Of a DNA stretch of 64,000 bases, positions 2,703 through 24,799 are shown piece after piece. The translations under genes were made by a program, and so were the position numbers. Source of the stretch: an uncultured Chloroflexia bacterium (GTDB lineage: Bacteria; Chloroflexota; Limnocylindria; Limnocylindrales; CSP1-4); contig CAVVNQ010000003.1 in the NCBI GenBank assembly GCA_963749705.1, positions 544,001-608,000 of the forward strand. The letters run 5' to 3'. The notes under the pieces are model-generated. The model was not told where the DNA came from, did no database searches, and worked only from the letters and a program-made list of their open reading frames with translations. Position 1 is the first letter of the stretch; each line of letters opens with the position of its first letter.

Positions 2703-4239
2703 TCAGCGGTGCTCGAGCTCGCGATCGAACTGGCGCTTGAGGAGCCACAGGAACACGATCCCGGCCAGGATGAAGGCGAGGACGATCACCATCGCCTGGC
2801 GTCGGAAGACGCTCTCGTCGATCTTGGCCGTGGCCAGCTCCTGGGCCGCCTCCGCCCGTGCCTTCGCATCGGTGGACAGCTCGGCGACGAGCTTGAGCTT
2901 CGTGGTGTGCACGGATGCCTGCGCCTGGATCAGGCTCGTCTTGGCGCCGACCAGCCCCACCTCGGCATCCGAGGTGATCATGCCCAGCCGGGAGGCCTCC
3001 TCGATCTTTGCGCTGGCATCGTCGTAGGCCTGCTCGGCCGAGGTGACGGCGGTCGAGATCCCCTGGATCTGGGCGTAGATCTGCGAGTCGGGGTGATGGC
3101 AGGTGTCGCACCGCCGATCCGGCTCGCTCGCGAACCGGTTGAGCTGGAGCCGCAGCTGGTGGGTCACCAGGTCGTGGCACGTCGAGCAGTCGTAGTCGGG
3201 CGGCGTCGGGTGGAAGAACAGCTGCGAGCTGGGCTGCGACACATCGTGCGTTCCATGGCACGTCCAGCACTGCGGTGCCGCGGCCTGGAGCTCGGAATGG
3301 CGGCTCTGCTGATACAGCTCCTCGGTCGCGGTATGGCACTTGCCGCACACCTGGACGACCGTCGCCGATGTCGGCGGCTTCGCATCATGCGAGCCGTGGC
3401 AGGACGCGCAGCTGGGAGCCCGGACGTCCTTGTTCTCGAGCAGCGCCACGCCGTGGACGCTCTTGGAGTAGATCTCGTACTGGTCGGTGGGGATGCCGTA
3501 GGGCTGCATCCGCGCGGGATCCGCGTGGCAGGACGCGCACAGGTCGGGGACGTTCAGGGCGTACACCTTCGCCGTCGGGTCGGAGACCTTCTTCACGTCG
3601 TGCGAGCCATGGCAGTCGATGCAGATCGCGACCCGCGTGTCGGCGGCCGTCGCGAGCCGCTGGCCGTGGACGCTCGACCAGTACTTGGCGTACTCATCCG
3701 TGGGCAGGCCCGTGCCGCGCATTCGTTCGACGTTCGCGTGGCAGCTGGCACACACGCCGACGGCGTCCATTCGATCGGGGGCGCCGACGAACCCGTTCGA
3801 GGCGTCCATGGCCACCGTGATCTGGTCGGAGCGGGGATCGCCGCCGTGGCAGTCCGCGCACGTCACGCCCGCGGCTGCGTGGGCGCTCGTCTGCCACGCG
3901 GCCGCGATGGCCGCCTGCTTGTCGTTGACTGCACTGTGGCAGTCGTAGCAGCCGTTGGCGCCGCCGCCCTCGGGATGGGCGATGATCGCCGGAACGGGCG
4001 GCGGCGAGACGAGCGGGAGCTCGGACGGCTCGGGTGTCGCCCCGAACAGGGGGTTCAGGGTCGCGGATGCGGATGGGGTCGGCGTCGCCGTATCCGACGA
4101 CGCTGCCGGGCTGGGACTCTCGGCCACCGCCGACCAGGCGAAGGCGAACCACAGGATCACGGCCGCGCCGATCACGGGCGCGACCCGCAGCACGCGGCGA
4201 ATCGTCGTGGCTCGGGCGGGGTTCGGCCGCATGGGTGTC

Positions 4240-4256
<17 letters not shown>
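2703..4256 (-). CDS. Membrane-anchored decaheme cytochrome c (third gene of the Rieske/cyt b operon)
   Basis: 10 CxxCH motifs counted (CYDCH, CADCH, CASCH, CIDCH, CASCH, CASCH, CGKCH, CWTCH, CSTCH, CDTCH). N-terminal signal/TM, Pro-rich linker, helical stalk and C-terminal TM. Confidence 0.9.
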
Positions 4257-5331
<1,075 letters not shown>

Positions 5332-5332
5332 C

Positions 5333-5803
5333 TCAGGATTCCGTGAGGTAGATCTGGTCGCCCTCGACCGACACCGTCACGGGCGGCAGCGGGGCCGGCG
5401 GCGGACCCGACACGACGGCTCCCGTCGCCGGGTTGAAGTGCCCGTCGTGGCAGGGGCACTGGATGGCGCCGATCAGGTCGTTCCAGGCGACCACGCAACC
5501 GAGGTGGGTGCAGATGGCCGAATAGGCCTTCACGCCCTGATCGGTGTTGACCACGATCGCCGGCTTGCTGCCGACGGCGACGACCTTGCCGGCGCCGGGC
5601 GGGATGTCCGCCGTCGTGCCGACCAGGGTCTTGCCACCCCCGGCGGCCCGGCCGCTGCTCGACGGGACCAGGAAGCCGACGATGGGGGTGAGGATCATCG
5701 CCGCGGTGGACACCACGGTGAGCCCGCCAAGCCAGCGCAGGAACGCGCGTCGCGTCGGTCCGGCCGGCTTCGCCGGCGGCGCGCCGCTGGTCCCAGGCTC
5801 CAT
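5333..5803 (-). CDS. Rieske 2Fe-2S subunit, Tat-exported
   Basis: TRRAFL twin-Arg motif plus TM; CTHLGC and CPCHDG boxes; purine-rich SD before ATG 5803. Confidence 0.92.
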   Translation of the reverse strand: MEPGTSGAPPAKPAGPTRRAFLRWLGGLTVVSTAAMILTPIVGFLVPSSSGRAAGGGKTLVGTTADIPPGAGKVVAVGSKPAIVVNTDQGVKAYSAICTHLGCVVAWNDLIGAIQCPCHDGHFNPATGAVVSGPPPAPLPPVTVSVEGDQIYLTES

Positions 5804-6069
5804 CCCTTCCCTCCGATGCGGGCCATACGGCCCGTTCGACCTCGACCGATGGCCTGCATTGTGTGTGCTGGGGCATGGCCCAACCAAGGTGCGGATGGAT
5901 ATAGAAAAGGCATAGGCGGCCGCTCAGGAGCCGGCCTCGCGGCCCCGGCCTGGTCGGTAAGGCGGCCCCGGCGTGGTCGACAAGGCGGCCCTCTGCCGGG
6001 TCGGGGCCGCGGGATCGCGGGTGCGCGGGGGGCCGTGGACGACGCGCGGGTGCGCCAGGGACGCGGCGG

Positions 6070-6642
6070 TCAGGACGCCGGCGGCAGCGGCGTGTCCGTC
6101 CCGGGGCCAACCCCGCCGAACGTCGTGTCGACCGCCGCGCGGACCTGGATCATGGTGCTGCCGTCCTGGAGCATCCGCTGCGCGAGGTTCGCCGTCTTCA
6201 CGCACACGTCGCAATACGACGCGTGCTCCTCGTACACGTAGCTGCCGCGGACCTCGCGCCGCTGGAAGAAGCAGTCGAGGTTGCTCCGGTGGTCGATGGC
6301 CATGCAGCCGCAGTGGCACGGCAGCCACTGGAGGACGTCGGGCCGTGCCAGCGCATACGCATAGGCCGCCTGCCAGTCACCCGGCAGCGCCGTCACGTAG
6401 TCGGGTCGGGCCTGCCACGCTGCCGCCACCTCATCCGCGGTCGGCATGTGCATGTCGCCCAGCGGCACGACGGCGTCGGCCGGATGTCCCGTCGCCATCG
6501 GCGCATCGGTCATGGTCGGGTCCGCCCCCGAGCATCCGGCCATCCCGCCAGCCAGGGCGAGCACCAGGATCAGCAGGGGCATGCCCAGCGCGCCCGCTCG
6601 GCGCGCCTGGGAGGGTCGCGAAGGGTTGGCTCGGGTGGTCAT
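6070..6642 (-). CDS. PCYCGC-motif lipoprotein
   Basis: Signal peptide with MAGC lipobox; LPCHCGC...HRSNLDCF...EEHASYCDVC. Confidence 0.8.
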   Translation of the reverse strand: MTTRANPSRPSQARRAGALGMPLLILVLALAGGMAGCSGADPTMTDAPMATGHPADAVVPLGDMHMPTADEVAAAWQARPDYVTALPGDWQAAYAYALARPDVLQWLPCHCGCMAIDHRSNLDCFFQRREVRGSYVYEEHASYCDVCVKTANLAQRMLQDGSTMIQVRAAVDTTFGGVGPGTDTPLPPAS

Positions 6643-6662
6643 GGTGTCTCGCTCCCGATTGC

Positions 6663-8447
6663 TCAGCGCCGGGCCGTAAGTGGCCACGAGATGCCGTCCG
6701 GTGCGCCCAGCCCGGTCGCCGGCGCCGGTTGGAAGTACGGGGTCGTGACGGGCAGCACCGGTTCGCGATGGCACCGCGCGCAGTACACGGGCTGGTGGCA
6801 GTAGGCGCACGCGGTGTTGCCCTGGCGACGGATCACCGCCGCGTGGTTGGTCAGCATCTCGTCGTGGTCGACCGTGACCGCGCCCGTCGAGTGACAGTTC
6901 ACGCAGAAGTCACGCGCATGGCACTCGCCGCAGGTCGTGCCGCCCGGGTCGGTGCTCGTGGCCACGTTCTTGTGACTGAACACGTACAGCGGCTGGTCGT
7001 GCGTCGCCGGCGGCTCGCCGAGCGGCAGGCTCGCGATCGCGGGTCCGATCTGCGGGAAGGTGTGGCAGGTGTCGCAGGTGGACGGAATCGTCTTCGTGGT
7101 GACCCTTCCGTCGACGACGAGGAAGTGGCCGCCGTCGTGACATCGGAAGCAGCCCGGGAAGTCCATGTGGCCGAGGTTGTCCGGGTAGGTCCGCGCCGAC
7201 ACCTTCATCTCGGGCGTTGCGGTCAGCCGGTACAGCACCTTGATCTCGTCGACCGCCGCGTTGATCTGGGCGGCCTTGGTCTGGAACACCAGCGGGTACT
7301 GCTGCTGGTAGAAACCCTCGAGGCGGTCCGCTTCGGCGTCCGCCGACGCCAGGTTCGGGTACCCGGCCGACAGGATCCGCATCCCCTCGCGCTTGATATA
7401 CGGCAGCGTCGGGTCGATCGCGCCGGTCGACAGCTGGTAGTCGAGCCCGGTTCGCGGGTTGGGGATCGCGTGGCCGGCGCGGTTGTGGCAGTCGTAGCAG
7501 GTCATCGTCGTCAGCCGCTCGGCGGCCTTGATCGCATCGATGTCCGGCTGGACATCCTCGCTGACCTTGATCTTGTCCTGCGAGATGAACTCGTCGACGG
7601 TCCCGTCCTCGGTCGTCGCCGCGACGTAGTCGATCGTCGTCGCGCGCGGGTCCGCGCTCGCATAGGTGACGTTGCGCAGCACGTGCCAGTGAACGCTGCG
7701 GTCCACGTTGAACACGTCGCCGCCGCCGGGACGGATCAGGAGACCGACCAACTGGCGGGTGTTCGCCTCGTCCTCGGCGAACTGGGTCCGGGTCTTCAGC
7801 GAGGCAAGGGCCTCGCGGCTCACGGTGTGGCAGCCCGCGCAGGTGTCGGATGCTGCCGGCAGCTCGGAGTGGTCAGGGGGCGGGATCGGCTCCGGGAAGG
7901 TGCCCAGCACGACCTCGACCAGCTGCCGCGTGCCGTTCAGCTTGGCCTTGATCCAGCCGGCGATCCCCGGCTCGACATGGCATTCGGCGCAGGCCACGTC
8001 GCGGTGCGGGCCGGCCTCGTAGGCGGCCAGCTCCGGCTCCATCGCATGACAGCGACCACAGAAGTCGGCCGTCTCGGTCCAGTGGAGGAGCGACACCGCA
8101 GAGAAGGTTGCGACGCCACCCAGGCCGGCCAGCACGAGCAGGAGGGCGAACAGCCCGCCGCGCGAGCGCGGGAGCCGCAGCCGCCGGCCACGCAGGTAGA
8201 ACCGCGACCGGTGCTCCGGCGCAGGCGCCTCGGCTGACGGCGGCTCCGCGGACCCGGTGCTCTCGGCGGCGGTCGATGACTCGTCGTTGGTCGCTGCCAC
8301 ATCGGCGGTCGCCGCTGCCTCGTCGGCGGTCTGCGTCGCCGGCGCAGGTCCCTCGTGGACGGCCTCCCCTGCCGGCCCGTCGGCTGGTGCATCGCCGGTC
8401 GCGGACCGGTCCGCGCCGGCATCGGGCTGCTCCGGGAGGTCGCTCAT
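6663..8447 (-). CDS. NapC/NirT-domain (ImcH-like) membrane decaheme cytochrome c, putative quinol oxidase
   Basis: N-terminal TM followed by TETADFCGRCH..M and H..V.CAECH......GWIKAKLNG (NapC/NirT signature). Also CYDCHNRAGH and YPDNLGH..FPGCFRCH; 10 CxxCH in total. Confidence 0.88.
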   Translation of the reverse strand: MSDLPEQPDAGADRSATGDAPADGPAGEAVHEGPAPATQTADEAAATADVAATNDESSTAAESTGSAEPPSAEAPAPEHRSRFYLRGRRLRLPRSRGGLFALLLVLAGLGGVATFSAVSLLHWTETADFCGRCHAMEPELAAYEAGPHRDVACAECHVEPGIAGWIKAKLNGTRQLVEVVLGTFPEPIPPPDHSELPAASDTCAGCHTVSREALASLKTRTQFAEDEANTRQLVGLLIRPGGGDVFNVDRSVHWHVLRNVTYASADPRATTIDYVAATTEDGTVDEFISQDKIKVSEDVQPDIDAIKAAERLTTMTCYDCHNRAGHAIPNPRTGLDYQLSTGAIDPTLPYIKREGMRILSAGYPNLASADAEADRLEGFYQQQYPLVFQTKAAQINAAVDEIKVLYRLTATPEMKVSARTYPDNLGHMDFPGCFRCHDGGHFLVVDGRVTTKTIPSTCDTCHTFPQIGPAIASLPLGEPPATHDQPLYVFSHKNVATSTDPGGTTCGECHARDFCVNCHSTGAVTVDHDEMLTNHAAVIRRQGNTACAYCHQPVYCARCHREPVLPVTTPYFQPAPATGLGAPDGISWPLTARR

Positions 8448-8454
8448 CGGGATG

Positions 8455-9051
8455 TCAGTTCAGGATTGCCGCGATGGCGCGGTCCATGTCGTCCGGGTGC
8501 ATCGCCCCGATCCGGATCTCGCGGATCCGGCCGTCCGCCCCGATGAAGAAATGGGTCGGGATGCCCATCGTGCGGTACGTGCCGGCGATGACGGTGTTCT
8601 GGTCCACCGCGATCGGGAACGTCAGGCCGGCGCGCTCGGCATAGCCCTGAACGTCGCCGGCAGGCTCGCTGATGAACACGCCCAGCACCACGAGCCCCTG
8701 CGCCTGGTACTTCTCGTAGGCCGCCTCGACGTCGGGCGCCTCCGACCGGCAATCGGGGCACCACGACGCGCCGAAGGTGAGCCACACCGGCTTACCGGCG
8801 TAGTCGGACAGCGAGACCTTCGTGCCGTCGTAGGTCATGCCGGTGAAGTCGGGCGGCTGGGCGCCGATGGCGGGGCCGGCTGCCGCCGCGTTGCCGCCAA
8901 GGTCGACCTGGGTGACCCCGTCGTTACCGGTTCCACCCATGACGAACGCGATCGCGGCGATGATCACGGCCGTCATCCCGATCACGACGACGGTCTGCAA
9001 CCGTCCCGGAACGCGCCCGGCCGGCCGGGCCGTGAGGCCTGCTGCGCTCAT
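8455..9051 (-). CDS. resA: ResA/TlpA-like membrane-anchored thiol-disulfide oxidoreductase
   Basis: TM anchor, FGASWCPDCRSEAP and cis-Pro motif GIPTHFFI; sits in the maturation operon. Confidence 0.85.
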   Translation of the reverse strand: MSAAGLTARPAGRVPGRLQTVVVIGMTAVIIAAIAFVMGGTGNDGVTQVDLGGNAAAAGPAIGAQPPDFTGMTYDGTKVSLSDYAGKPVWLTFGASWCPDCRSEAPDVEAAYEKYQAQGLVVLGVFISEPAGDVQGYAERAGLTFPIAVDQNTVIAGTYRTMGIPTHFFIGADGRIREIRIGAMHPDDMDRAIAAILN

Positions 9052-9079
9052 CTCGCTCGATCCCTTCTCTCGGCCCGGA

Positions 9080-9964
9080 TCAGCCGAGGCCGGAGTAGCT
9101 GTGGAGCCCGCCGAAGAACAGGTTCCCGAAGTAGGTGAACAGCGTGGCCGCGAAGCCGAGCACGAGCAGCCATGCCGCGCGATTGCCCCGCCAGCCGCGC
9201 ATCACGCGGGCGTGGAGGTAGGCGCCGTAGATCAGCCACGTGACGAGGGAGGCGGTCTCCTTGGGATCCCAGCTCCAGTAGGTGCCCCATGCCGTGTCCG
9301 CCCAGACCGCGCCCAGGATGATCGTCAACGTCAGGAACGGGAACCCGACGACGACCGCGCGATATCCGATCTCGTCCAGCACCTGCGGCTTGGGCAGGCC
9401 CCAGCGGCCACCCTCGGGCTGGATCAGGTAGAGCAGCGAGGCCGCGAACGCGATCGAGAAGCTGCCGTAGGCGACGATGGCGACGGCGACGTGGACGGTG
9501 AGCAGGAGGTTGTTCTGGAGGGCCGGGACGAGGGGCTCGATCTCGGCCGGGATCGTCGCCGCGTAGCCCATCATCGCGAGCGCGACGGGGAGCGCGACCA
9601 GCGCCAGGATGCGCTGGTGGTAGCGGCGCTCGAACCACATGTAGGCGGCGAGGATCCCGAACGCGAACGCCATCGAGAACTCGTACATGTTGGCGAACGG
9701 CCCGTGGCCGGTGGCAACGGTCCGGAACGCCATGCTCGCGAGGAGCGCGACGACCGCAAGCCAGCCGAGGATCGTGGCGTAGCGCCCGATCGCGGCCGTC
9801 CGTGGCCCGGAGATGAAGCCCATCGCGCCGCCCGGGACCGTCATGCCGGCGGTCTGCAGGCGGGCGGCCCGGAGGCCGGACACCGCGTAGAGCAGGTAGG
9901 CGAGCGTCGCGAGCCCCGTGCTCAGCATCGCCGCCACGAAGGCGTATTCGGACATCTTGGCCAT
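9080..9964 (-). CDS. ccsA: System II cytochrome c synthase CcsA/ResC
   Basis: WWD domain WGTYWSWDPKET, conserved His residues, multiple TMs. Confidence 0.93.
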   Translation of the reverse strand: MAKMSEYAFVAAMLSTGLATLAYLLYAVSGLRAARLQTAGMTVPGGAMGFISGPRTAAIGRYATILGWLAVVALLASMAFRTVATGHGPFANMYEFSMAFAFGILAAYMWFERRYHQRILALVALPVALAMMGYAATIPAEIEPLVPALQNNLLLTVHVAVAIVAYGSFSIAFAASLLYLIQPEGGRWGLPKPQVLDEIGYRAVVVGFPFLTLTIILGAVWADTAWGTYWSWDPKETASLVTWLIYGAYLHARVMRGWRGNRAAWLLVLGFAATLFTYFGNLFFGGLHSYSGLG

Positions 9965-9977
9965 GGCCAGGTCTCCC

Positions 9978-11444
9978 TCAGCTTCGCGCCGGCGCCTGGA
10001 GCGCCTGGCGGACGGTAGTGACAAGGGTTTCGAACTCGGTTGCCAGGGTTGCCTCCCGGTTGCCCAGGCTTGCCAGCCCCAGCACGGCCCCGCCATTGGG
10101 GCGGGCCGTGATCCTGGCCCACACGCGCTTGTGCGGGATGGTGAAGCGGATCACGAAGCCGACGAACAGCAGCAGCGCCCCCAGCCACACGAGGGTCACG
10201 CCCGGATCGCGGGCCACGCTCAGGCCGGTGAACTGGCTCTCCCGATCGAAGGTGACGGTGAGCCCGCCCACGGTTCCGGCGCTGCCCTGGTCGAGCACGA
10301 CCGTGTCGACCTCGGTGCCCGTCTCGGCGGTGTACAGGTCCAGCTCCATCTGGCCGGGCTTGACCTTCGGATCGCCGTTGCCGAGGGTGCCGATCACCCA
10401 GCCGACATACTGCGTGCCGGGGATGCTGAACGAGCCGATCGGCCGGTCGTCCGCGGTCGTCCGCCAGGCAAGCGGCACGCCCTCGGACACGAGCGTGTTG
10501 CCCTTGTCGTCCTTGACGGTCATCACCGCGGCGGACCCGAAGAATGCCTGGTAGAAGGTCGTGTCGCCGTACCGCAGCGGGTCGTTGACGCGGATGGTGT
10601 GCCGCGCGACCTCGGTCCCGTCCTTGTACAGGACGACATCGCTCGCGTAGTCCTCCGGGGCCCCGGTTGCGACGTAGTACGTATCCGTGAAGTCGAGCAG
10701 CTGGATGCTCAGCCCGTCTTCGGCCGCGACCGGGAGGGTCGCGCCCTCGGCGATGGTGAACCCGCTGTCCCGGTAGCCGAAGGTCGAGCCGACGATGGCG
10801 CCGGCGAGGATCACGACCAGCGACAGGTGGCCGATGAGCCCGGCGAACGGCGCCCAGCGGAACCGGTCCGCGTACAGGTGGATGGTGCCGTCGTCGGCGA
10901 CGATCGTCCGGTAGTGCTTGTTCCTCAGCAGGCCCTGGACGATCGCGAGCGTCTCGGCGGGGCCGTGGCGGACGACGATCACCTCGTGCTCCGGCGCGTG
11001 CTCGAAGAACCCGGGTCCGACGTCGACGCGCGGCTTGATGGCGGTGCGGATCATGCCCGGAATCCGGTGCACGGAGCAGGCGACGAGGCTGATCGTGAGC
11101 GCCGCGACGGTGAGCCGGAAGATGACCGAGTTGAAGATCTGGAACAGCTGGAGGCTGTCCATCAGGCCGGTCAGACCGCCGAATCGGGGCCGGATCTCGT
11201 TGAGCCAGTCCGCCTTCGCGGCCGGGTCGGTGAGGACGCCCGGAGGGGCCTGGATCACCAGCGACCCGATGACGCCGAGAACGGCCAGGACCAGGATCAG
11301 GACCATCGCCACGCGCATCGACGTCAGGAAGTGCCATAGTCCTTCCAGCCCCGCGTCGACGCGGTCCATGATGGTCGGACCCGCCGCCCCGCCAGCCGGG
11401 ACGGCTGCGGGAGGAAGGGGCCGGGAACGCACCTCGTGTGCCAT
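9978..11444 (-). CDS. resB: System II cytochrome c biogenesis protein ResB/CcsB
   Basis: FLTSMRVAMVLILVLAVLGVIGSLVIQ, LIGHLSLVVILAG, IRVNDPLRYG..FYQ and RDPGVTLVWLG. Confidence 0.92.
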   Translation of the reverse strand: MAHEVRSRPLPPAAVPAGGAAGPTIMDRVDAGLEGLWHFLTSMRVAMVLILVLAVLGVIGSLVIQAPPGVLTDPAAKADWLNEIRPRFGGLTGLMDSLQLFQIFNSVIFRLTVAALTISLVACSVHRIPGMIRTAIKPRVDVGPGFFEHAPEHEVIVVRHGPAETLAIVQGLLRNKHYRTIVADDGTIHLYADRFRWAPFAGLIGHLSLVVILAGAIVGSTFGYRDSGFTIAEGATLPVAAEDGLSIQLLDFTDTYYVATGAPEDYASDVVLYKDGTEVARHTIRVNDPLRYGDTTFYQAFFGSAAVMTVKDDKGNTLVSEGVPLAWRTTADDRPIGSFSIPGTQYVGWVIGTLGNGDPKVKPGQMELDLYTAETGTEVDTVVLDQGSAGTVGGLTVTFDRESQFTGLSVARDPGVTLVWLGALLLFVGFVIRFTIPHKRVWARITARPNGGAVLGLASLGNREATLATEFETLVTTVRQALQAPARS

Positions 11445-11547
11445 GACCGACGACCTCCTCAGGCGCCGGAGGGCGACGCGAGGGTCGCCGGCCGGCTGGG
11501 ATTGGTGTTGGGATCGCGAGCGCCGATGGCCACGAGCAGCGGGCCGA

Positions 11548-12714
11548 TCATGGCTGCGTGCTCGGTGCCGCGGAGGCCGCCGGCGAGGCGTCGTCGGCTG
11601 CGCTCGGTGATGGCGCCGCGCTGGCCGCCGCTGAGGCGGCCGGCAGCATCGACGATGCGGCAAGCGAGTCCAGGTGCTGCTGGACGGTATCGGCGAGCTG
11701 GGAGCCGGGATCCAGCTCGACCACGAGGCCCCATTCCCGCTGGACCCCGGCCCAATCGGGCGTGGCCTGGTTGAGGAACAGGAACCCGAGGTCGTAGTGG
11801 GCCTCGACGTTCTTGGGATCGATCGTGACAACCTGGTCCCAGGCGTCCTGCGCGGCCGGGAGGTCGCCCAGGTTGAAGCTTGCTGCGCCGCGCGCAAGCA
11901 AGGCCCCGACGTTCTTCGGATCGAGCGCGAGCAGCTTGTCCAGCCATGTGCCCGCGCTGGCGTAGTCCTCGCCCGCGTAGAACTCGTCCGCGAGCGCGAG
12001 CATCGTTGCCGTGTCGGTCGGGTCTGCCTGGATCTTCTCCATCAGCGCCGCCACCTTGGCCTGGTCGACCACCGGTGCGGATGCGGCGGCCGAGTCCGGG
12101 CTCGCGGTGCCGGCACCCGGGTTGACCCCTGCGCCGTTCAGGTTGTAGCCGATGAACAGGAGCCCGGCCGCGGCCGCGATGCCAACCGCGCCGAGGACCA
12201 GCTTCTTCCAGATCCCGCCCGCGGCTGCTGGCGGCGCGACGGTCGCGACAGCCGCGCCGGACCGCACCTGCGCCGGACGGGCCTTGCGCTTGCGATCGGG
12301 GCCCATGTCCGAGTGGGCGCTGGGCGTCACCGAGGCGTACAGGGCCTCGAAGTCGTCGTCGGCGTCGCTCGTTTCGTCGTCGACGTCTGGCACCGCCTCG
12401 GGAAGGGGGTCCCGGCGGGCCGGAGGTGTCGCCGGCCCGCCGGGTTCGACCCGCGGCGGCCTCGTCGGGCTCCTGAGGGCTGAGCCCCCGAAGCCGACTG
12501 GGTCGGTCAAATGGAGGTACGCGGCGTCGAGCGCCGCGGACTGCGAGTGGGCCCAGCCGCGGACGGCGGACGGGGCGGATGCGAGGTAGTCGCTCACCGC
12601 CTGGTGAACGCGGTCGACGTCTTCGGGGGACGCGCTCGGCGGCAGGCCGAGCTCCGCGAGCAGCTCGTTCTCGGCGGCTGCTCGGCCGGTGGCGGGCAGG
12701 CCCGGGGCGCTCAT
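11548..12714 (-). CDS. Membrane-anchored TPR protein with a degenerate J-domain-like N-terminus
   Basis: N-terminal LGLPPSASPEDV...LDAAYLHLTDP, low-complexity linker, one TM, then TPR repeats (DPKNVGALLARG, DPKNVEAHYDLG). Confidence 0.75.
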   Translation of the reverse strand: MSAPGLPATGRAAAENELLAELGLPPSASPEDVDRVHQAVSDYLASAPSAVRGWAHSQSAALDAAYLHLTDPVGFGGSALRSPTRPPRVEPGGPATPPARRDPLPEAVPDVDDETSDADDDFEALYASVTPSAHSDMGPDRKRKARPAQVRSGAAVATVAPPAAAGGIWKKLVLGAVGIAAAAGLLFIGYNLNGAGVNPGAGTASPDSAAASAPVVDQAKVAALMEKIQADPTDTATMLALADEFYAGEDYASAGTWLDKLLALDPKNVGALLARGAASFNLGDLPAAQDAWDQVVTIDPKNVEAHYDLGFLFLNQATPDWAGVQREWGLVVELDPGSQLADTVQQHLDSLAASSMLPAASAAASAAPSPSAADDASPAASAAPSTQP

Positions 12715-12947
12715 GCCTGGCCACCCGTGAGACGCGCGCAACGATCGTTGCGCAGTAGCTGCCGGATCATCGTGAATGCCCTCATTGCGCGCCGCGGGGG
12801 ACCGCGGCCTGACACCTGTGTGAATTGTCCGGGTCAGGCCCCTGCCAGCCCATCCACCGGGCCGCACATTTCGACCGGGACCCGGGAGGGCTATTGGGTG
12901 GAGAGATCAGGCCGGGCCTGTACCCGTCGATACATCCGGAGGCCGGG

Positions 12948-13970
12948 TCACGGGGCGGGGACGGTCGCCCCGTCGTGACCTACGCCGTGGCAGGTCAGGG
13001 TGCATGTCCCGGTCGTCGCGTCGTAGCTGATCGGCAGGCCGCCGTAGGCGACCACGTCCGGCGCGAACTTCACCAGGCCGCGGGTGTCGTCGCTCGTGCC
13101 GTGCAGGTTGTAGTGGCACTCGGCACACAGGGCGTTTCCCTGGCCGTCGCCCGGCACGGTGATATCGGTGCCGGCGCTGCCGGAGCTGTAGCCGTCGATG
13201 CTCCGGAGGTGGAAGCCGTGGCCCGGGAAGTTGGTGCCGGTCGATGTCCCGGTGGTGTCCTCGATCGCGGTCTCCTGGGCGCCCGAGTGGCACGAGAAGC
13301 ACAGGCTGAAGTCGGCCGCCCGGTAGGCCTCGCCGGTGGATCGCAGCGGGCTGGTCCGGTAGGCGCTTGGGAGCAACGAGGAGTCGGACGCGCTGTGCGA
13401 GGCATGGCAGGCTGCGCACGTATCGCTCGTGAGCCCGCTGATCACGTGCGGCGACGTGGGATCCACGTTGATATCCAGATCGGCGAACGGGGCGACCAGG
13501 CGGACCTCCGGCGAGGGCGAGACCTCCGGCGAGGGCGAGACCTCCGGCGAGGGCGACGGACCGAGGGAAGGATCCGGGGATCCCGTTGGCACCTCGCTGG
13601 GCGGGACGTCAACGCTTGCGCTGGGGGTCGGGGACGCGCCCGGTGTGGCGGATGCGGACGGGTCCACCGACGGTGACGGCGCAGCGCTTGGCGAGGGTTC
13701 CGCGGACGGGCTGGGGGATTCGGACGCCGGTGGGGGCGAGCCGGGCGTCGGTGACGCCGAGGGCGTGGGCGACGCCGACGGCGTCGGGGTGGCGGCGGGC
13801 GCCGATGCCGAGGGCGTGGGGGTGGCGGCGGGCGCCGATGCCGAGGGATCCGGCGACGGGTCGGTGGCGGAGACGGCCGGCACCGCCGGCGCAAACGTGG
13901 CCAGCACGGCGGCGGCCACCAGCCACGCTCCGAAGAGCGGGCCGGCGCGGCGAGTGAGCCCTGCGTTCAT
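12948..13970 (-). CDS. Secreted multiheme cytochrome c with a long Pro/Ser/Thr linker (3 CxxCH + 1 CxxxCH)
   Basis: Signal peptide, ~120 aa PST-rich region, then CAACHASH, CFSCH, CAECHYNLH and CTLTCH. Confidence 0.85.
   Translation of the reverse strand: MNAGLTRRAGPLFGAWLVAAAVLATFAPAVPAVSATDPSPDPSASAPAATPTPSASAPAATPTPSASPTPSASPTPGSPPPASESPSPSAEPSPSAAPSPSVDPSASATPGASPTPSASVDVPPSEVPTGSPDPSLGPSPSPEVSPSPEVSPSPEVRLVAPFADLDINVDPTSPHVISGLTSDTCAACHASHSASDSSLLPSAYRTSPLRSTGEAYRAADFSLCFSCHSGAQETAIEDTTGTSTGTNFPGHGFHLRSIDGYSSGSAGTDITVPGDGQGNALCAECHYNLHGTSDDTRGLVKFAPDVVAYGGLPISYDATTGTCTLTCHGVGHDGATVPAP
13503..13556. repeat. Three exact 18-bp tandem repeats within the linker coding region (SPSPEV x3)
   Basis: GACCTCCGGCGAGGGCGA repeated three times. 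Confidence 0.9.
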
Positions 13971-14143
13971 GCTCGTGGGACGTTCTCTCGTATCGGAGCC
14001 AATTCGGATCTCATGGCCGGCGGCGGACCCGACAGCCCGTTCATCGTGACGAAGACCAACCAGGTGCCCGGTGGCGCATCAGCCCCGGCACAGTGGCTGC
14101 TCTCCGTCGAGATGAAGTCGGCGATCGCGACCTCGGGGGTTGC

Positions 14144-14175
14144 CCCGGCGGCCCGGTTGAACCGTGGCCGCCGGG
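14144..14175 (-). terminator. Strong GC stem-loop immediately 3' of the hexaheme gene
   Basis: CCCGGCGGCC / GGCCGCCGGG 10-bp stem with an inner CGGTT/AACCG extension; no U-tract. Confidence 0.6.
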
Positions 14176-14194
14176 AGCGTTCGAGTACGGTTGG

Positions 14195-15535
14195 CTAGTT
14201 GCCCGGGGTGGGCAGCGGGCCGAGGTAGGTGCCGTCCGCCAGAGTCCCCGTCGGGTCGTGGCAGAGCTGGCAGGTGCCGCGGTTGTCCGCCTTGAGCAGG
14301 CGGCTGTCACCGGAGGTGGCAACACTGCCGTTCGGGCCGACGTTGGTGGGCTTGGGCGGGACCGCATGGTTCGGGTCCACGTAGTTGAGGGAGTTGGTGC
14401 CCGTCATGAGGGCGTTGGAGCCATGGGACACATGGCACTGCTCGCACCCGACGCGGGTCGTCCCGTGCTTGTACATGAATGTGGAGTCCGCGCTGTTCGC
14501 GACGAGCGAGGACACCTGATTGCCACCCGGCGTGTAGTCGCTGACGCCGCCGGTCACGGTCGTGCTATAGCCGTTGTAGCGCGTGTGGCACTGGATGCAC
14601 CACGCGGTCATGAGGCCGGTGGTGTTGGCCGGGGCCACGCCGCCGTTGGCGGCCGCGTTCGTGGCGGTGACGCCGTTCCAGGCGGTGTTCATGGGGTCTT
14701 TCGGCGGGAGAGGCGTCAGGTACCAGAGGTCTGCGCCGGTGGGATCCCAGTGGTAGCGCCAGTAGTCACCGGTGTCGGTGGTCACGATATTCGCCGCGGA
14801 GCCATTGGCATCGGTGCCGTCGGTGGCCGGCTTGATCGTGTAGTTGTGGGTCCCGGTCGTGGTCGTGTCAACAATCTCGACCGCGCTCGTCGACAGGACG
14901 AACTGGGCTGCGGGCGAAGGAGCCGTCGCAACAGCGCTGGGCTTCGTCTGCAGAATTCGGTACTGGCCATTGCCGTGCGGGTTGTGGCACGAGGCGCACT
15001 CGAGGGTAACCGTGGCACCGGTGCCGCTGTTGACGGCTCCGTTGCCCCAGACCGTGCCAGTGCCCCAGCCGGCGTTGTAGATGCCACCCGTGCCGCCGTG
15101 GGTCGAGGTGACCTTCTGCGCGGTGGCCAGCGGCTGGATGTGGCTGTTGTAGCTGTGCGAGGCCTCGTCGATGAGGACCTTTGCCGCGTTGCTCGAATCG
15201 ATCAGCGCGTACTGGAACCCGCCGCCCCGGAGGGCGCCGAGGACGGGAGCGGTCTTGGCCGTCGCTGAGTACTGGACGCCGTCAATGACGTCCGTGGTGG
15301 CCTTGCTGCCGTCGTGGCAGTTCAGGCACAGCTCCGGCTGGTCGTTGTTGAGCAGACCCGCGGCGGTCGCCGTGTGGGCCCGATGGCATCCCGCGCACGA
15401 ATCGGCGGTCAGCCCGGCGGTCCCGTTGTTGGTGGCCATCTGATGGGGGCCACCGTCGGCGAACGCTGGAATCGCGGCAACGAACAGCCAGAGGATACCT
15501 ATCGCACCGAGAAGTGCGAACTTCCTCACTGTCAT
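14195..15535 (-). CDS. OmcS-like secreted hexaheme cytochrome c (candidate nanowire subunit)
   Basis: Strong SD (AAAGGAGGT) and Sec signal ending AFA. Six CxxCH motifs in OmcS-like order: CAGCHRAH, CLNCH, GGGF, CASCHNPHG..YRIL, MTAWCIQCH, CEQCHVSHGS, RGTCQLCH. Confidence 0.85.
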   Translation of the reverse strand: MTVRKFALLGAIGILWLFVAAIPAFADGGPHQMATNNGTAGLTADSCAGCHRAHTATAAGLLNNDQPELCLNCHDGSKATTDVIDGVQYSATAKTAPVLGALRGGGFQYALIDSSNAAKVLIDEASHSYNSHIQPLATAQKVTSTHGGTGGIYNAGWGTGTVWGNGAVNSGTGATVTLECASCHNPHGNGQYRILQTKPSAVATAPSPAAQFVLSTSAVEIVDTTTTGTHNYTIKPATDGTDANGSAANIVTTDTGDYWRYHWDPTGADLWYLTPLPPKDPMNTAWNGVTATNAAANGGVAPANTTGLMTAWCIQCHTRYNGYSTTVTGGVSDYTPGGNQVSSLVANSADSTFMYKHGTTRVGCEQCHVSHGSNALMTGTNSLNYVDPNHAVPPKPTNVGPNGSVATSGDSRLLKADNRGTCQLCHDPTGTLADGTYLGPLPTPGN

Positions 15536-15620
15536 TACCTCCTTTGTGGACTGGATGAGCACTGCCTGCGCTGCAGGCGACGTTGTCGTCCTGACCTCCA
15601 CCTCCGTCTCCCTGCACATG

Positions 15621-16676
15621 TCAGTAACTCCACACCTGGAGCCGGTCGTTGCCCCAGTCCGCGACGTACACGCGCCCCCGGGCATCGATGGCGAGCCCGT
15701 TCGGGTAAGAGAACGCGCCGTCGCCGGCGCCCTTCTGTCCGAACGTGTTCACGTAGCCGGGGCCGCGATCGCCGGATGTCATGGGTGCGTAGGCCTGGAT
15801 GGTCGATGCACTCGAGTCCACGACCAGGATCCGGCCGTGGTCGTCGATCCCGATCCCAACTGGAAGGCCCAGGTTGCCGACCGCGTCCCCGCGCTCCACG
15901 ATGCCAACCTGGGCACCGGATGCGTCGAAGACGAGCAGCCGCCCGTTGGCGGTGTCGGTGACGTACACGGTGCCGTTCGCGTCCACCGCGATGCCGTTGG
16001 GGTGGTTCATCCCTGCGCCCGCGCCGAAGTCCCGGACCAGCTTGCCGTCCGAACCGAACACGTGGATCACCACGGGGTCGGCGCTCACGTCGGCGATGTA
16101 GACGTTGCCGGCCTGGTCGAAACCGATCCCCAGGGGCTGCCAGTTCGCGAGCCCCGCGCCCTGGTCGAAGATCCGGAGGTACGTGCCATCCGCGGCGTAG
16201 ACCACGACCGCGCCGTTGAACCGGTCGGTTGCCCAGAAATCGCCGGTCGCCGGGTCGGTGGCCACGAATAGCTGATGGGCCTGCACGATCAGGTCGGCCG
16301 GGGGCTTGAGGACCGCGAGCTGCCCACCCTGGCGGTCCATCATCACCGTGTCCAGGGAGGTGCCTGTCTGGGTTACCACGATCCGCGTGCCGTCAGCGCT
16401 CACGGCGACCGCCTGCGGCTTGCTCAGATCGTAGAAGGATCCTTGGTACGCCGGCATCGGCGGCTCGACGAAGGGAACCGGGATGTTGGTGATCGGCTGG
16501 CGGAACAGGAGGTACCAGATCGACAGGGACCCCATGATCGCGAGCAGGGCGAGGAGGAACAGGAGCAGGAACTTCTTGCGTCGGTTGTCCTCGCGCTCCT
16601 CGACCGGTGCTTCCGGCGGGGTCGAAGGCTGGGCATCACCGGAGAGCGCTCCAAGCGACAGGTCGGGTGTGGTCAT
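15621..16676 (-). CDS. Membrane-anchored NHL-repeat beta-propeller protein
   Basis: N-terminal TM; repeats P.GIAVD..G.VYV.D..N.R (HPNGIAVDANGTVYVTDTANGRL, YPNGLAIDARGRVYVADWGNDRL). Confidence 0.9.
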   Translation of the reverse strand: MTTPDLSLGALSGDAQPSTPPEAPVEEREDNRRKKFLLLFLLALLAIMGSLSIWYLLFRQPITNIPVPFVEPPMPAYQGSFYDLSKPQAVAVSADGTRIVVTQTGTSLDTVMMDRQGGQLAVLKPPADLIVQAHQLFVATDPATGDFWATDRFNGAVVVYAADGTYLRIFDQGAGLANWQPLGIGFDQAGNVYIADVSADPVVIHVFGSDGKLVRDFGAGAGMNHPNGIAVDANGTVYVTDTANGRLLVFDASGAQVGIVERGDAVGNLGLPVGIGIDDHGRILVVDSSASTIQAYAPMTSGDRGPGYVNTFGQKGAGDGAFSYPNGLAIDARGRVYVADWGNDRLQVWSY

Positions 16677-16677
16677 C

Positions 16678-17661
16678 TCAGTTGTTGCCTCCGGCAGTGG
16701 GGGACGCGACCTCGGAGGGTGCTGCCACGTCGCCCGCGCCGAGGCTGCTGAGGCCGATCTGCGCGGACTGGTTCGTGGGGTCGATCGCGAGCACCTGGCG
16801 GTAGTAGGACGTCGCCGCGGTGTTGTCGCCGCTCTGGGACGCGATGAGCGCGAGACCGATGAGCGCGTCGGTCTTCATGGCGCCCGTCGTGAGCGGCTTG
16901 AGCGCCGCCGTCGCCTCATCGGGGCGGCCCTGGCAGAAGGCGACCATGGCACTTGCCCATGCGACGCCATCCGGCTGTTGGAGGGCCGTGTAGGAGACGG
17001 CGAGCTCCTGGTACGGCTCGAACCAGCCGGTCGGCACGAAGGCGACGGAGAGCCTGAGCGCACTGACCGCCTTCGTCGGGTCACCTGTCTTGTTGAGGGC
17101 CTGGCCAAGCAGGTACAGGGCGTCTGCATCGGCTCCGTTGATGGCGACTGCCTTCTCGAGCGTGGTCGCCGCGTCGGCGGCCAGGCCTTGCTGCAGCTGG
17201 ACGAGGCCGAGCTCGTAATAGGCATGCTCGAGCTGCGGGTCCGAGCTTGCGAACTCGCCCGCTGCGGCTTGGTCGATGAACGCGTTGAGGTCAGTGGCGG
17301 CCGCGTCAGGCTGGCCGATCTCAACGTAGGCGATCGCCCTGCCGAGCAGCGCGGGTCGATCCGCCGGGTCGATCTTGAGCGCCTCGGTGAACTGGGTGAT
17401 CCCGTCGTCATAGCGCTTGGCGCTCACGTAGGCGGCGGCGAGATAGTCGCGTGCCTGGAGATCGTTGGGGTTTGCCTGGACGGCGGCCTCCGCCGCCGCG
17501 ACCGTGCGATCCGAAACGGACCCACCGGTGTCGACATGCCGGTCGCTCCAGTAGACGAACACCATCACGGGGACCCCGATCAGCAGGATCAGCGCCGCGA
17601 TCAGGATCAGCCGGTTGAGGGTTCTGGTGGAGATGGTCGTGGGACGTGCGACTCTCATCAT
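16678..17661 (-). CDS. Membrane-anchored TPR protein
   Basis: N-terminal TM followed by multiple TPRs (NPNDLQARDYLA, HAYYELG, DALYLLG); start codon approximate. Confidence 0.85.
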   Translation of the reverse strand: MMRVARPTTISTRTLNRLILIAALILLIGVPVMVFVYWSDRHVDTGGSVSDRTVAAAEAAVQANPNDLQARDYLAAAYVSAKRYDDGITQFTEALKIDPADRPALLGRAIAYVEIGQPDAAATDLNAFIDQAAAGEFASSDPQLEHAYYELGLVQLQQGLAADAATTLEKAVAINGADADALYLLGQALNKTGDPTKAVSALRLSVAFVPTGWFEPYQELAVSYTALQQPDGVAWASAMVAFCQGRPDEATAALKPLTTGAMKTDALIGLALIASQSGDNTAATSYYRQVLAIDPTNQSAQIGLSSLGAGDVAAPSEVASPTAGGNN

Positions 17662-17837
17662 TGCTGCCATTCCTTGCGGTGGACGCGCGGCCGGACACCC
17701 GGCCATCAAAGGACGCCGAGGCCTGAGCCCGGCTCCCCGTCCATGTTCGGGCGCGCGAGGGCGAGTTCCCATCCGTCGGGGGATAGAACTGCGATACAGG
17801 GCGTGGTGCGCACGCAACGGTGGTCGTGTATCGAGTG

Positions 17838-17874
17838 GCCCCCGAAGGTCCCAAGGACCCGGGCCGGATGTCCC
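17838..17874. promoter_or_regulatory. Tandem GGG(A/C)C-N4-G(G/T)CCC palindromic boxes upstream of the TPR-NHL-hexaheme operon
   Basis: GGGCCGGATGTCCC (17861-17874) abuts GGTCCCAAGGACCC (17847-17860). They resemble DosR/DevR-type (NarL family) boxes. Confidence 0.4.
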
Positions 17875-17921
17875 GTCCCGTCAGACGCGGGGCGCGCCCG
17901 GCCTCCAGGATGGAGGGCCGG

Positions 17922-18452
17922 TCAGAGGCTCTCGCGCGGCGTCCGGAAGCTCGATGGCACGTCCACCTCGATCACGTCGCCCACCAGCCTGAGCGGGAAC
18001 CGGTCCAGGGGGCGCGGCGGCGGACCCGATACGACCTTGCCGTCGATGTCGAACACGCCATCGTGGCAGGCACACTTGAACTCGTGATCGGCGTCAGCCC
18101 AGCGGTAGATGCACAGCGCGTGCGTGCAGCGCGGGTCGAACGCGGTGATGTCGCCGCCGGCGCGCCTGACGAGCCAGGCGGACGCGGCCACCGCCTGGCC
18201 GCCGGTGTCGAGCGTGAACGGGACCTCGGTCGGCACCCCCACCTCGAGCGACGCGGGATCGACGTCCAGGGTCACCGTGATCGGGGGACCGGCGCAGGCC
18301 TCGAGCAGGACGCCGAGGCCGCCGCCCGCGGCGATCGCACCGGCGCCCATCAGGAGCAGCACCCGACGGCGGGGAACGGGCGTCGTCAGCGGATCGATGG
18401 GGCGGCGCCCGGCGTTGCCCGGCAGCGTCGGGATGTGGCGCTGATCTCCCAT
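17922..18452 (-). CDS. Second Rieske 2Fe-2S protein (Tat lipoprotein)
   Basis: PRRRVLLL twin-Arg motif, LEAC lipobox, CTHALC and CACHDG boxes. Confidence 0.88.
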   Translation of the reverse strand: MGDQRHIPTLPGNAGRRPIDPLTTPVPRRRVLLLMGAGAIAAGGGLGVLLEACAGPPITVTLDVDPASLEVGVPTEVPFTLDTGGQAVAASAWLVRRAGGDITAFDPRCTHALCIYRWADADHEFKCACHDGVFDIDGKVVSGPPPRPLDRFPLRLVGDVIEVDVPSSFRTPRESL

Positions 18453-18462: not shown

Positions 18463-18888
18463 CTAGCCCGGAATGACGACGGTGCGCAGCCCGCGGTCGG
18501 GCTCGGTGGGACGATCCCGTTCGGGGCCCGGGTCGGCGATGTCGGCCCGCTGGCCGGTGACCGCGCTCCGGATCGCCGCCATGAAGTCGTCCGGCCGGCT
18601 GCTCAGGGTCTCGCGCCGCAGGCTCCAGGCGCAGGTGGTCGTGATGTCGACGTCGAGCACGACGGCGCAATGCGAGCGTCGCATCACCTCGGCCGCATCG
18701 AGCGACCCGCCTTCCTCGACCACGATGATCCCCGGCTCGCGGGCGATCGCCGCGTCCACCGCTCCGACATTGGCGCCGTCCACGGCGTCCACCGCCAGGC
18801 CGGGCTCGGCGGCGAGCATCCGTTCGAGGCCTTCGCCCATCAGCGGATGGCTGTAGACGACGAGGACGCGCACCGGTTCAGGCGACAC
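18463..18888 (-). CDS. Degenerate stand-alone receiver-like protein
   Basis: VRVLVVYSHPLMGEGLERMLAAEPG resembles a REC N-terminus but lacks the acidic DD pair; SD GAGGAG before GTG. Confidence 0.55.
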   Translation of the reverse strand: MSPEPVRVLVVYSHPLMGEGLERMLAAEPGLAVDAVDGANVGAVDAAIAREPGIIVVEEGGSLDAAEVMRRSHCAVVLDVDITTTCAWSLRRETLSSRPDDFMAAIRSAVTGQRADIADPGPERDRPTEPDRGLRTVVIPG

Positions 18889-19050
18889 CAGGGCTCCTCG
18901 TGGAATCCGTGGGCCGCGGATGCGACCCGTGGGAGAGATGCTAGGGGTGGCCGGCGGCAAGGCCAATCCCTCGCCCGGCACAGCCTGCTCCCCGGGGTTC
19001 TGTATCCGACGGGATAGCCGGCCGCGTCGCGCCGCGGGTCCCAGTCCCGC

Positions 19051-19761
19051 TCAGCCGAGCCGCGGGTCCTGGTCGCGCTTCGGCTCGCTGCCCGCGAACC
19101 CCCGACGGACCGCATAGGCCGCCGCCTGGACGCGGTTGGTCAGGTGCAGCTTCTCGAGCGCGTTGTGCACGTGGTTCTTGACCGTCCCCTCGGTGATCGT
19201 GAGCTGGTTCGCGATCTCCTTGTTGGACAGCCCGTCGGCGACCAGCTCCAGGATCTCCGACTCGCGCCGGGTGAGCACGCTGTCCTGCGCTGCCGGCGAC
19301 GGCTGGCCGCGGACGGGGATGCCGCCGGTCCGGAGCGCCGTGAGCAGCTTGGTGGCGACCGCGGGTGCGATCGGGGCCTCGCCGCGCATCACGCCGCGGA
19401 GATCCTCGAACAGCTGCTCGGGGCGGACGTTCTTGAGCAGGTAGCCGTTGGCCCCGGCCTTGATCGACTCGAACAGGTCGTCATCGTCCTCGGACACCGT
19501 GAGCATCACGATCGGCGTCGAGATCCCGGCCTGGCGGATCGCGTTGACGCCGTCGACACCCGAGGCACCCGGCATGTTCACGTCCATGACCACCAGGTCG
19601 GGGCGCAGGGCGCGGACCTTGTCCAGCGCGTCGCGGCCGTTCTCCCCCTCGCCCACGACGGTCATGTCGAACTGGGCGCTGATCAGCGTCGCGAGCGCTC
19701 TCCGGAACAGCGGCTGGTCATCGACGAGCAGCACCCTGAGACGCGGCGGAGTGTGTTCCAC
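19051..19761 (-). CDS. NarL/LuxR-family response regulator
   Basis: LLVDDQPLFR, VVMDVNMP and GYLLK; HTH LTRRESEILELVADGLSNKEIA...TVKNHV. Confidence 0.93.
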   Translation of the reverse strand: MEHTPPRLRVLLVDDQPLFRRALATLISAQFDMTVVGEGENGRDALDKVRALRPDLVVMDVNMPGASGVDGVNAIRQAGISTPIVMLTVSEDDDDLFESIKAGANGYLLKNVRPEQLFEDLRGVMRGEAPIAPAVATKLLTALRTGGIPVRGQPSPAAQDSVLTRRESEILELVADGLSNKEIANQLTITEGTVKNHVHNALEKLHLTNRVQAAAYAVRRGFAGSEPKRDQDPRLG

Positions 19762-21523: not shown

Positions 21524-21640
21524 GGGTCCGACTGTGCCGTTCGATACATGCGGTGGCGAAGGGCCGTCCGGCCCGTGCATGGAGGGACCCATCGGCACCC
21601 AACCGCGTGACCCGGACCGGGCCGGCCGCGGCGGTGCGCG

Positions 21641-24684: not shown

Positions 24685-24799
24685 GGTTCCCGAGTGTAGT
24701 GCGGTCGGTCGTGTCCCGGATTCCCGCCGCGCGGCGGAGCGCGGCCGAATGCGCCGCGGTGTGGCCGGCCGGATCGGCTGCCGCAACACGGTCCCGCGT

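Follow-up and report, generated by a model that had tools for sequence, protein, structure and literature searches.

We analysed a 64,000-nucleotide stretch of DNA from an uncultured soil Chloroflexia bacterium of the Limnocylindrales (contig CAVVNQ010000003.1, positions 544,001 to 608,000), called the window in the following. On its minus strand, the gene at 14195-15535 encodes a hexahaem c-type cytochrome that, judged by its sequence and by structure predictions, is a good candidate for a nanowire subunit. The protein is a remote homologue of OmcS from Geobacter sulfurreducens, with roughly half of the chain in common, and we regard it as highly probable that it is a bis-histidine hexahaem protein of the OmcS superfamily. 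With modest confidence we favour the whole chain of inference, in which this OmcS relative is exported by the Sec pathway and polymerises as an electron wire. The original prediction, made from the letters of the window alone, had proposed a candidate polymerising nanowire subunit, and as a candidate it is supported here by a profile search and a two-copy structure prediction. The evidence lies in the features of the sequence, in the remote homology and fold likeness to OmcS, in a predicted asymmetric self-interface and in a conserved operon.

Translation from the ATG at 15535 to the TAG stop at 14195-14197 gives 446 residues. As read from the sequence, residues 1-26 form a Sec-type signal peptide with an n/h/c layout and an A-x-A site, and cleavage falls between MTVRKFALLGAIGILWLFVAAIPAFA and DGGPH. 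Around this site A26, D27, G29 and H31 are invariant across 34 relatives. Residues 2-26 were helical in an AlphaFold2 model built with 34 sequences; this model had an overall predicted local distance difference test (pLDDT) of only 36.7, was otherwise unusable and was replaced by the run described below. Neither a cysteine at +1 or lipobox, nor a C-terminal hydrophobic tail, nor an LPXTG motif was found when the sequence was read. The mature chain of 420 residues is rich in Thr, Gly, Ala, Asn and Ser. Six CxxCH motifs are present in the precursor, at C47, C70, C180, C313, C364 and C422. The cleavable signal, the missing anchor, the mature length of about 420 residues and the six motifs had all been described before and were confirmed by translation, motif count and reading of the sequence.

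Six further histidines (H31, H54, H146, H187, H357 and H371) are invariant in the 34 relatives; across 123 more diverse ones each is either invariant or conserved to at least 90%. With twelve conserved histidines the count fits bis-His ligation of every haem and leaves no obvious open catalytic site; all six haems are therefore probably bis-His ligated. The family was sized in clustered protein libraries: at least 2,148 proteins match at 90% clustering among 7,997 candidates scored, and 945 representatives match at E <= 1e-3 in the 50% library. Exactly six CxxCH motifs were counted in 224 of 267 proteins (the query and its homologues), and the relatives range in length from 311 to 874 residues.

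The relation to OmcS was studied with an alignment of 123 diverse family members (A2), which was used for the profile, the AlphaFold2 model and the two-copy prediction. Searched against the PDB, the A2 profile matched OmcS (6ef8_A; E 1.1e-6, 31 bits), and the aligned part takes in positions 141-321 of the profile and residues 96-344 of the chain. The match is colinear across haem motifs 3, 4 and 5, and an extra weak stretch spans motifs 1 and 2. In the profile alignment, ECEGCHTMHNS of OmcS is paired with SCAGCHRAHTA of the family, SSCLNCHQHAG with ELCLNCHDGSK, LHCSSCHDPHG--KYR with LECASCHNPHGNGQYR, MSEWCANCHT with MTAWCIQCHT and NCLSCHRAHAS with GCEQCHVSHGS. The same order of motifs as in OmcS had been proposed; this stood for the flanks of motifs 1-5, whereas the haem-6 segment (R..C..CH) lies outside the HMMER alignment. 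A positional equivalent for each distal histidine was borne out for the order along the chain and not residue by residue, as the histidine between motifs 4 and 5 is not paired and an OmcS histidine falls in an insertion there. H54, the second histidine of CAGCHRAH, is aligned with residue 16 of 6ef8_A, and we take His16 to be the OmcS residue that ligates haem 5 of the neighbouring subunit.

Like OmcS (PDB 6EF8/6NEF), the protein is secreted, has about 400-420 residues and carries six CxxCH motifs in the same order together with twelve histidines. The flanking motifs CxxCHxxH, CLNCH, L.C.SCH.PHG..YR, WC..CHT and C..CH.xH.S are common to both. The A2 profile also matched, weakly and over one paired-CxxCH stretch, the nanowire cytochromes of the OmcE type, namely OmcE (7tfs, E 6.8e-5) and 9yuq_N (E 2.9e-4), the latter being the OmcE bundle of D. 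soudanensis (PMC13712944). According to PMC9473688, these tetrahaem cytochromes also use a histidine from the neighbouring subunit, as OmcS does.

AlphaFold2 with the A2 alignment gave a confident model of the hexahaem protein (pLDDT 87.6, predicted TM-score 0.89). When this model was compared with the PDB by Foldseek, 6ef8_A ranked first with E 3.9e-3 over 413 columns and the next match had E 1.6, OmcS being the best and nearly the sole structural neighbour. The match spans the whole chain (model residues 3-403, OmcS chain residues 1-407) with 27-28% identity at the aligned positions. Since the OmcS fold is reported to lack structural neighbours beyond its own homologues (PMC9473688), we consider the isolated full-length match meaningful. 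Unlike OmcS, the protein has a middle insert, at about residues 175-280 of the mature chain, which is family-specific and length-variable and has no OmcS counterpart.

Self-assembly was examined by predicting two copies of the mature chain together with A2. The interface score ipSAE was 0.63, 0.62 and 0.59, compared with 0.00 for the best of 3 controls; the runs had at least 96% of their contacts in common and a partner pLDDT of at least 85. The calibration set held 30 proteins solved as same-chain pairs, 20 of which reached the ipSAE mark, and 23 solved as single chains, of which 1 did. With a custom alignment such as A2 these counts are rough, and up to 19 in 100 single-chain proteins may pass. 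The original prediction had called for an oligomer model to look for head-to-tail stacking; a head-to-tail contact was obtained, in models without haems. The interface is asymmetric (heterologous), with the N-terminus of one copy lying on the C-terminal half of the other. In mature numbering it comprises residues 89-93, 105, 137-138, 294, 317-331, 341, 353-362 and 390-413 of copy 1, and the N-terminal residues 7-35 together with 159-164 of copy 2. A heterologous interface can repeat without end, as an open-ended polymer requires. These predictions support binding of the protein to itself rather than demonstrate it.

In this haem-free dimer model H28 of the mature chain (H54 of the precursor) touches residues 326-327 and 362 of the partner, which adjoin H331 and the haem-5 motif C338-H342. 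Across the interface, the haem-1 motif of one copy faces the haem-6 motif of the other, and the conserved C-terminal tail residues 412-413 clasp residues 13-16 of the other copy. In OmcS, 11 of the 12 axial histidines come from the own subunit and haem 5 takes one from the neighbouring molecule, as reported by Filman et al. 2019 (PMC6584659), and in the predicted contact, too, the haem-5 motif of one copy has the CxxCHxxH histidine of the other next to it. The CAGCHRAH histidine had been proposed as the equivalent of the cross-ligating OmcS residue; its alignment and its place beside the haem-5 motif of the neighbour agree with this, and its proximity in the model suggests that H54 may ligate haem 5 across the subunits. 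The interface residues are also more conserved (0.56) than those elsewhere (0.39) when the haem cysteines and histidines and the six extra histidines are excluded, and none of 20,000 permutations was as high.

Several observations weigh against a polymerising OmcS relative. OmcS was missed in the PDB by phmmer with the single protein and by the 34-sequence profile; both searches matched only MtrA, weakly, through paired CxxCH stretches. Only the deep A2 profile makes the relation visible, and a search against OmcS, which the original prediction had called for, is therefore positive but remote. With the same profile MtrA scores E 9.3e-7, on a par with OmcS. Because MtrA reaches this through the paired-CXXCH motif, part of the OmcS signal is generic to multihaem proteins. 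The Foldseek TM-score to 6ef8_A is 0.23 with a root mean square deviation of 18 A, and about half of the residues superpose on OmcS (209 aligned). The conservation of the interface is confounded by its proximity to the haem motifs, and the dimer model without haems may be a memorised copy of the solved OmcS filament. The gene is patchily distributed: at E <= 1e-20, 14 of 401 sampled Chloroflexota genomes carry it, and in the family of the host it occurs in 7 of 23 genomes besides that of the window. Nor are OmcT and other OmcS paralogues known to form filaments.

A hexahaem protein of the OmcS superfamily could also act without polymerising. It would then work singly or as a small oligomer, within the wall or at the surface, as an electron relay that links the membrane decahaem cytochrome of the cluster with acceptors, soluble or solid, or that passes electrons to the tetrahaem cytochrome next to it. 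We regard this as rather unlikely. The remoteness of the OmcS homology speaks for it, as do the many multihaem cytochromes that function as monomers, the middle insert without an OmcS counterpart with only 209 residues aligned, and the spread of family lengths. A dimer prediction, moreover, cannot separate a closed dimer-like contact from a filament, and single-chain proteins pass the ipSAE mark at the rates given above. However, the predicted contact of the N-terminus with the C-terminus is asymmetric and cannot close after two subunits, the conserved CHRAH histidine sits at the interface beside the haem-5 motif of the neighbour, and both termini are conserved despite lying outside the haem core.

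The curated libraries bear on a second explanation, which we find improbable: the likeness to OmcS would be convergent or generic, and the protein an unrelated paired-CXXCH cytochrome nearer to the MtrA/DmsE wires, threaded in or associated with another protein. Pfam PF09699 (Paired_CXXCH_1) matched four stretches of the protein with 74.4 bits against a cut-off of 20.6, and TIGR01905 gave 63.8 bits against 25.2. It is in line with this explanation that Paired_CXXCH_1 is accompanied among the curated matches solely by weak ones to the decahaem families DmsE and GSU2203. The closest clusters in the ESM Atlas, which we treat as leads only, are all named paired CXXCH or cytochrome c3, come from several phyla and do not carry the OmcS name. 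The decahaem scores, however, are far under their cut-offs (49.7 against 192.2 bits for DmsE, TIGR03508, and 48 against 325 for GSU2203), and the protein has six haems where ten would be expected. MtrA/DmsE (PDB 6R2Q chain A) has ten haems and is threaded through a porin in diderms, whereas the own genome, at 88% completeness, showed neither a porin-like gene nor Omp85. The MtrA matches are short repeated CxxCH...CxxCH stretches, whereas with OmcS the alignment stays colinear along the full chain. A catalytic multihaem enzyme, such as a reductase of nitrogen, sulfur or metal species, is very improbable: the Rieske proteins and the NapC/NirT-type cytochrome of the operon also accompany respiratory enzymes, but the six conserved non-motif histidines suffice for six haems, a CxxCK or other sign of a five-coordinate haem is missing, and no nitrite, hydroxylamine or sulfite reductase family scored above its cut-off in the curated library scans.

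For the favoured reading, the polymerising OmcS relative, we propose the following mechanism, in which haem ligation, polymer length, location, partners and physiology are what we infer. The exported apoprotein would receive its six haems from the co-encoded System II (ResA/ResB/CcsA), and subunits with their haems in place would add to one another head to tail. Each would pack its N-terminal segment, with the second histidine of CAGCHRAH in it, on the next subunit, against the haem-5/haem-6 region and the C-terminal tail, which is conserved. There H54 probably completes the axial ligation of haem 5, and the haems, six per subunit, would line up in an unbroken chain along the polymer, which may conduct electrons through the cell wall and perhaps beyond. 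Electrons would enter from the quinol pool through the NapC/NirT-type decahaem cytochrome, possibly by way of the linker-tethered tetrahaem cytochrome, and the flow might be either outward, to Fe/Mn oxides or humics, or inward. The NHL propeller and the TPR proteins, with one membrane anchor each, are candidate assembly or anchoring factors.

The neighbouring genes were compared by tblastn over 75 related loci, nearly all titled as Chloroflexota or Limnocylindria metagenome-assembled genomes; in many of the loci where a neighbour was missed, the contig stops short. Across these loci the neighbours keep the same order and orientation (Table 1). The same-strand cluster begins with a GAF histidine kinase and a LuxR-type regulator, followed by a 172-residue protein, a Rieske protein, a TPR protein, the NHL protein, the hexahaem gene and the tetrahaem gene. 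After these come the second TPR protein, ResB, CcsA, ResA, the NapC/NirT decahaem, the PCYCGC protein and finally the Rieske, cytochrome b and membrane decahaem genes. By their Pfam matches, ResA, CcsA/ResC and ResB (8455..11897) are cytochrome c maturation genes of System II. The NapC/NirT decahaem is a candidate quinol dehydrogenase feeding the chain, and the two-component system suggests conditional expression of the operon. The linkage of the genes at 2703-5887 to the cluster is looser.

Table 1. Features of the hexahaem gene and its cluster in the window; the last column gives the number of the 75 related loci in which a feature was found
Feature	Positions	Strand	Evidence and remarks	Loci
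GAF histidine kinase	19718-21598	-		56
LuxR-type response regulator	19051-19836	-		56
172-residue protein, function unassigned	18463-18981	-		58
Rieske protein	17922-18452	-		46
Membrane-anchored TPR protein	16678..17817	-	Pfam TPR families; hydrophobic segment at residues 62-80	65
NHL-repeat beta-propeller, one N-terminal anchor, directly upstream of the hexahaem gene	15621..16676	-	Pfam NHL E 6e-28; hydrophobic residues 33-51	68
Shine-Dalgarno sequence AAGGAGGT	15537..15544	-	conserved in relatives	
Signal peptide, residues 1-26, AFA|D cleavage	15458..15535	-	sequence features	
Hexahaem c-type cytochrome gene	14195..15535	-	translation; six CxxCH; Pfam Paired_CXXCH_1, 74.4 bits	
G+C-rich stem-loop	14144..14175	-	folding; stem-loop in the same place in relatives	
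Tetrahaem cytochrome (3 CxxCH + 1 CxxxCH)	12948..13970	-	signal/anchor and Pro/Ser/Ala-rich linker of about 130 residues	66
Second TPR protein	11548..12867	-	weak likeness to the CcmH/CycH TPR domain	66
ResB, start provisional	9978-11897	-	Pfam ResB	54
CcsA/ResC	9080-10096	-	Pfam Cytochrom_C_asm	53
ResA-like thioredoxin	8455-9051	-	Pfam AhpC-TSA/Redoxin	51
Membrane-anchored decahaem cytochrome, NapC/NirT N-terminal domain	6663..8447	-	Cytochrom_NNT E 1.9e-10; 10 CxxCH; one hydrophobic segment	50
PCYCGC-motif protein, between the NapC-type decahaem and the Rieske/cytochrome b genes	6070-6810	-	PF13798	11
Rieske protein, cytochrome b and membrane-anchored decahaem c, distal end of the cluster	2703..5887	-	many loci end before	12 (cytochrome b)

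The adjoining NHL-repeat gene recalls Geobacter, where the NHL-repeat gene GSU2505 adjoins omcS and is suggested as needed for OmcS (PMC9070056). Geobacter has an osc operon (PMC13194489), and Shen et al. 2025 deal with an OmcS assembly machinery described as 'widespread and ancient'. Unlike the neighbours of OmcS, those of the hexahaem gene include a System II set, a linker-tethered tetrahaem cytochrome and a NapC-type decahaem cytochrome.

A wider search for loci, in which short-form members were included, gave more than 300 matching loci; among the best 80, 78 were new and 26 not titled as Limnocylindria were tabulated. Nineteen of these best 80 are titled as Actinomycetota lineages. In the 18 Actinomycetota-titled loci tabulated, the NHL gene and the upstream TPR gene (of the 16678-17817 type) were present in all, the second TPR gene in 17, ResB in 15 and the tetrahaem gene in 11. 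The module TPR-NHL-hexahaem-(tetrahaem)-TPR-ResB-CcsA-ResA-NapC recurs in Actinomycetota-titled records. The homologue in the cultured Intrasporangium sp. DVR (L108:6001-7122) shares 37% identity (E 4e-48), with all twelve histidines retained. In the own genome the hexahaem gene is a single copy, with 1 match among 8 candidates scored in a paralogue search. Two adjacent full-length copies occur in three relatives (G088:C41:2394-5061, G253:C1:307107-309707 and G245:C38:1197-3781), which recalls the omcS/omcT tandem of Geobacter.

The envelope of the host was examined with profiles for Omp85/BamA (PF01103) and LpxC (PF03331), which were positive in 7 and 4 of 14 reference genomes, respectively, with diderms as controls. 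Neither profile had a match in the own genome (3.6 Mb), whose completeness of 88% cannot prove absence. On this evidence the host seems to have an envelope without an outer membrane. Unlike the Geobacter host of OmcS, it would thus have no outer membrane for the protein to cross.

The closest solved relative is OmcS and the closest concept is CwcA (Tfer_0075) of Thermincola. CwcA is a hexahaem protein of a Gram-positive host with 18% identity to OmcS that was insoluble on expression; it was homology-modelled as a wall-spanning polymer in which haem 5 is ligated by the next subunit, and it works downstream of a membrane decahaem (PMC7911101). By this description the two systems are alike, each with a hexahaem of low identity to OmcS, no outer membrane and a membrane decahaem (6663-8447 here), but Thermincola belongs to the Bacillota and the present host to the Chloroflexota. 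No Thermincola record was among the best 80 of the more than 300 matching loci. Solved cytochrome nanowires come from diderm bacteria (Geobacter, Desulfuromonas) and archaea in the literature examined. For bacteria without an outer membrane the CwcA model is the sole proposal found, and polymerisation of CwcA is itself unproven. An account of the present hexahaem family, or of an OmcS-like protein in Limnocylindria or Actinomycetota, was not found in this literature, although supplementary lists of homologues may include such proteins.

What is new here is a candidate wire that is related to OmcS, occurs in monoderm-type bacteria and comes with a conserved operon of its own. Its family is spread over Limnocylindria, other Chloroflexota and Actinomycetota, groups that are common in soils and sediments. 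Polymerisation, if it takes place, would explain how such bacteria move electrons through a thick wall; more organisms would be expected to reduce or oxidise minerals, and a new wire scaffold would be at hand. More tentatively, and with some doubt, we suggest that the hexahaem protein and its Actinomycetota homologues make up a monoderm-type nanowire system across the Terrabacteria: a wall-crossing polymer, assembled or anchored by the NHL and TPR proteins, fed by the NapC decahaem, matured by System II and encoded in one regulated operon. Abundant Chloroflexota and Actinomycetota of soils and sediments would then be characterised by cytochrome wires, and the OmcS fold would be older than the split of diderms and monoderms or have been transferred between these lineages. 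With Intrasporangium sp. DVR, a cultured carrier of the operon makes the idea directly testable.

The start of the hexahaem gene was also considered. The longest open frame extends to 15685 but would overlap the upstream NHL gene. The Shine-Dalgarno sequence AAGGAGGT, which had been predicted as near-perfect, is perfect and is kept in relatives. It stands 1 base from the ATG at 15535 (2 bases when counted from GGAGG), whereas a GTG at 15529 has a spacer of 8 bases and is the sole start present in more distant relatives. For these reasons the true start is probably GTG 15529, giving a precursor of 444 residues and leaving the mature chain unaffected.

About 20 nucleotides past the stop, the predicted 3' hairpin was confirmed as a perfect 10-bp G+C stem (arms 14144-14153 and 14166-14175) that is not followed by a U tract. 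The 3' region was also folded in 17 relatives; 12 of the 13 with intact frames have a strong stem-loop at most 90 nucleotides past the stop, differing in sequence. It possibly serves as a 3' stabiliser of the mRNA or as a partial terminator. A scan of 12800-17900 for consensus promoters and terminators found no promoter and called no terminator after the hexahaem gene. The hexahaem frame stops early in 4 of the 17 related loci (L012, L019, L071 and L074, at 181, 310, 83 and 147 codons), which may be frameshifts or assembly errors. The same cause may apply to the short cluster proteins P0047, P0050 and P0058, which lie on megabase contigs.

The codons of the gene had been described as A/T-richer and, from this together with the Shine-Dalgarno sequence and the 3' hairpin, an abundant structural protein had been proposed. 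The raw G+C content of 0.671 is indeed the lowest among the 15 cluster genes (the rest have 0.675-0.736), but at the third codon position it is 0.88 and within the 0.83-0.96 of the neighbours, which gives no evidence of a codon bias linked to expression. The deficit sits at codon position 1 (0.58), where it is lowered by the mix of amino acids (Thr 13.6%, Asn 7.4%, Ser 6.7%). High expression can therefore not be read from the codon usage, and we rejected this inference.

Of 20 sequencing runs, 10 are RNA libraries, and three metatranscriptome runs of one sediment study were compared with the cluster. These runs, which were chosen through the hexahaem gene, contain contigs at least 93% alike on it, and run X2 has mismatch-free contigs on ResB/CcsA and other cluster genes. 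The summed contig word depth peaks on the hexahaem gene (108 and 73 in X2, 117 and 195 in X3, 27 and 35 in X8), while the flanking genes have about 0-30 in X2 and less in X3 and X8, and in the DNA run X1 the depth is flat at about 11; such depth cannot rank genes, the RNA libraries may hold DNA and uncovered stretches of X8 carry no information. At best these contigs hint at transcription, and we draw no support from them.

Further observations concern the neighbouring genes. A PDB search with the C-terminal domain of the tetrahaem cytochrome gave a chance-level match alone (E 1.5). In one DNA run an 18-base deletion was found at 13503, inside the repeats of its Pro/Ser/Ala-rich linker, and the length of this linker therefore differs between strains. 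The trio at 2703-5887 resembles an unusual bc-type complex with a multihaem c subunit. Outside the cluster, NuoE/NuoF-like and NuoG/formate-dehydrogenase-like iron-sulfur proteins and a molybdopterin oxidoreductase are encoded on the minus strand at 21641-24981 and 29563-31215, each group being flanked by its own two-component system.

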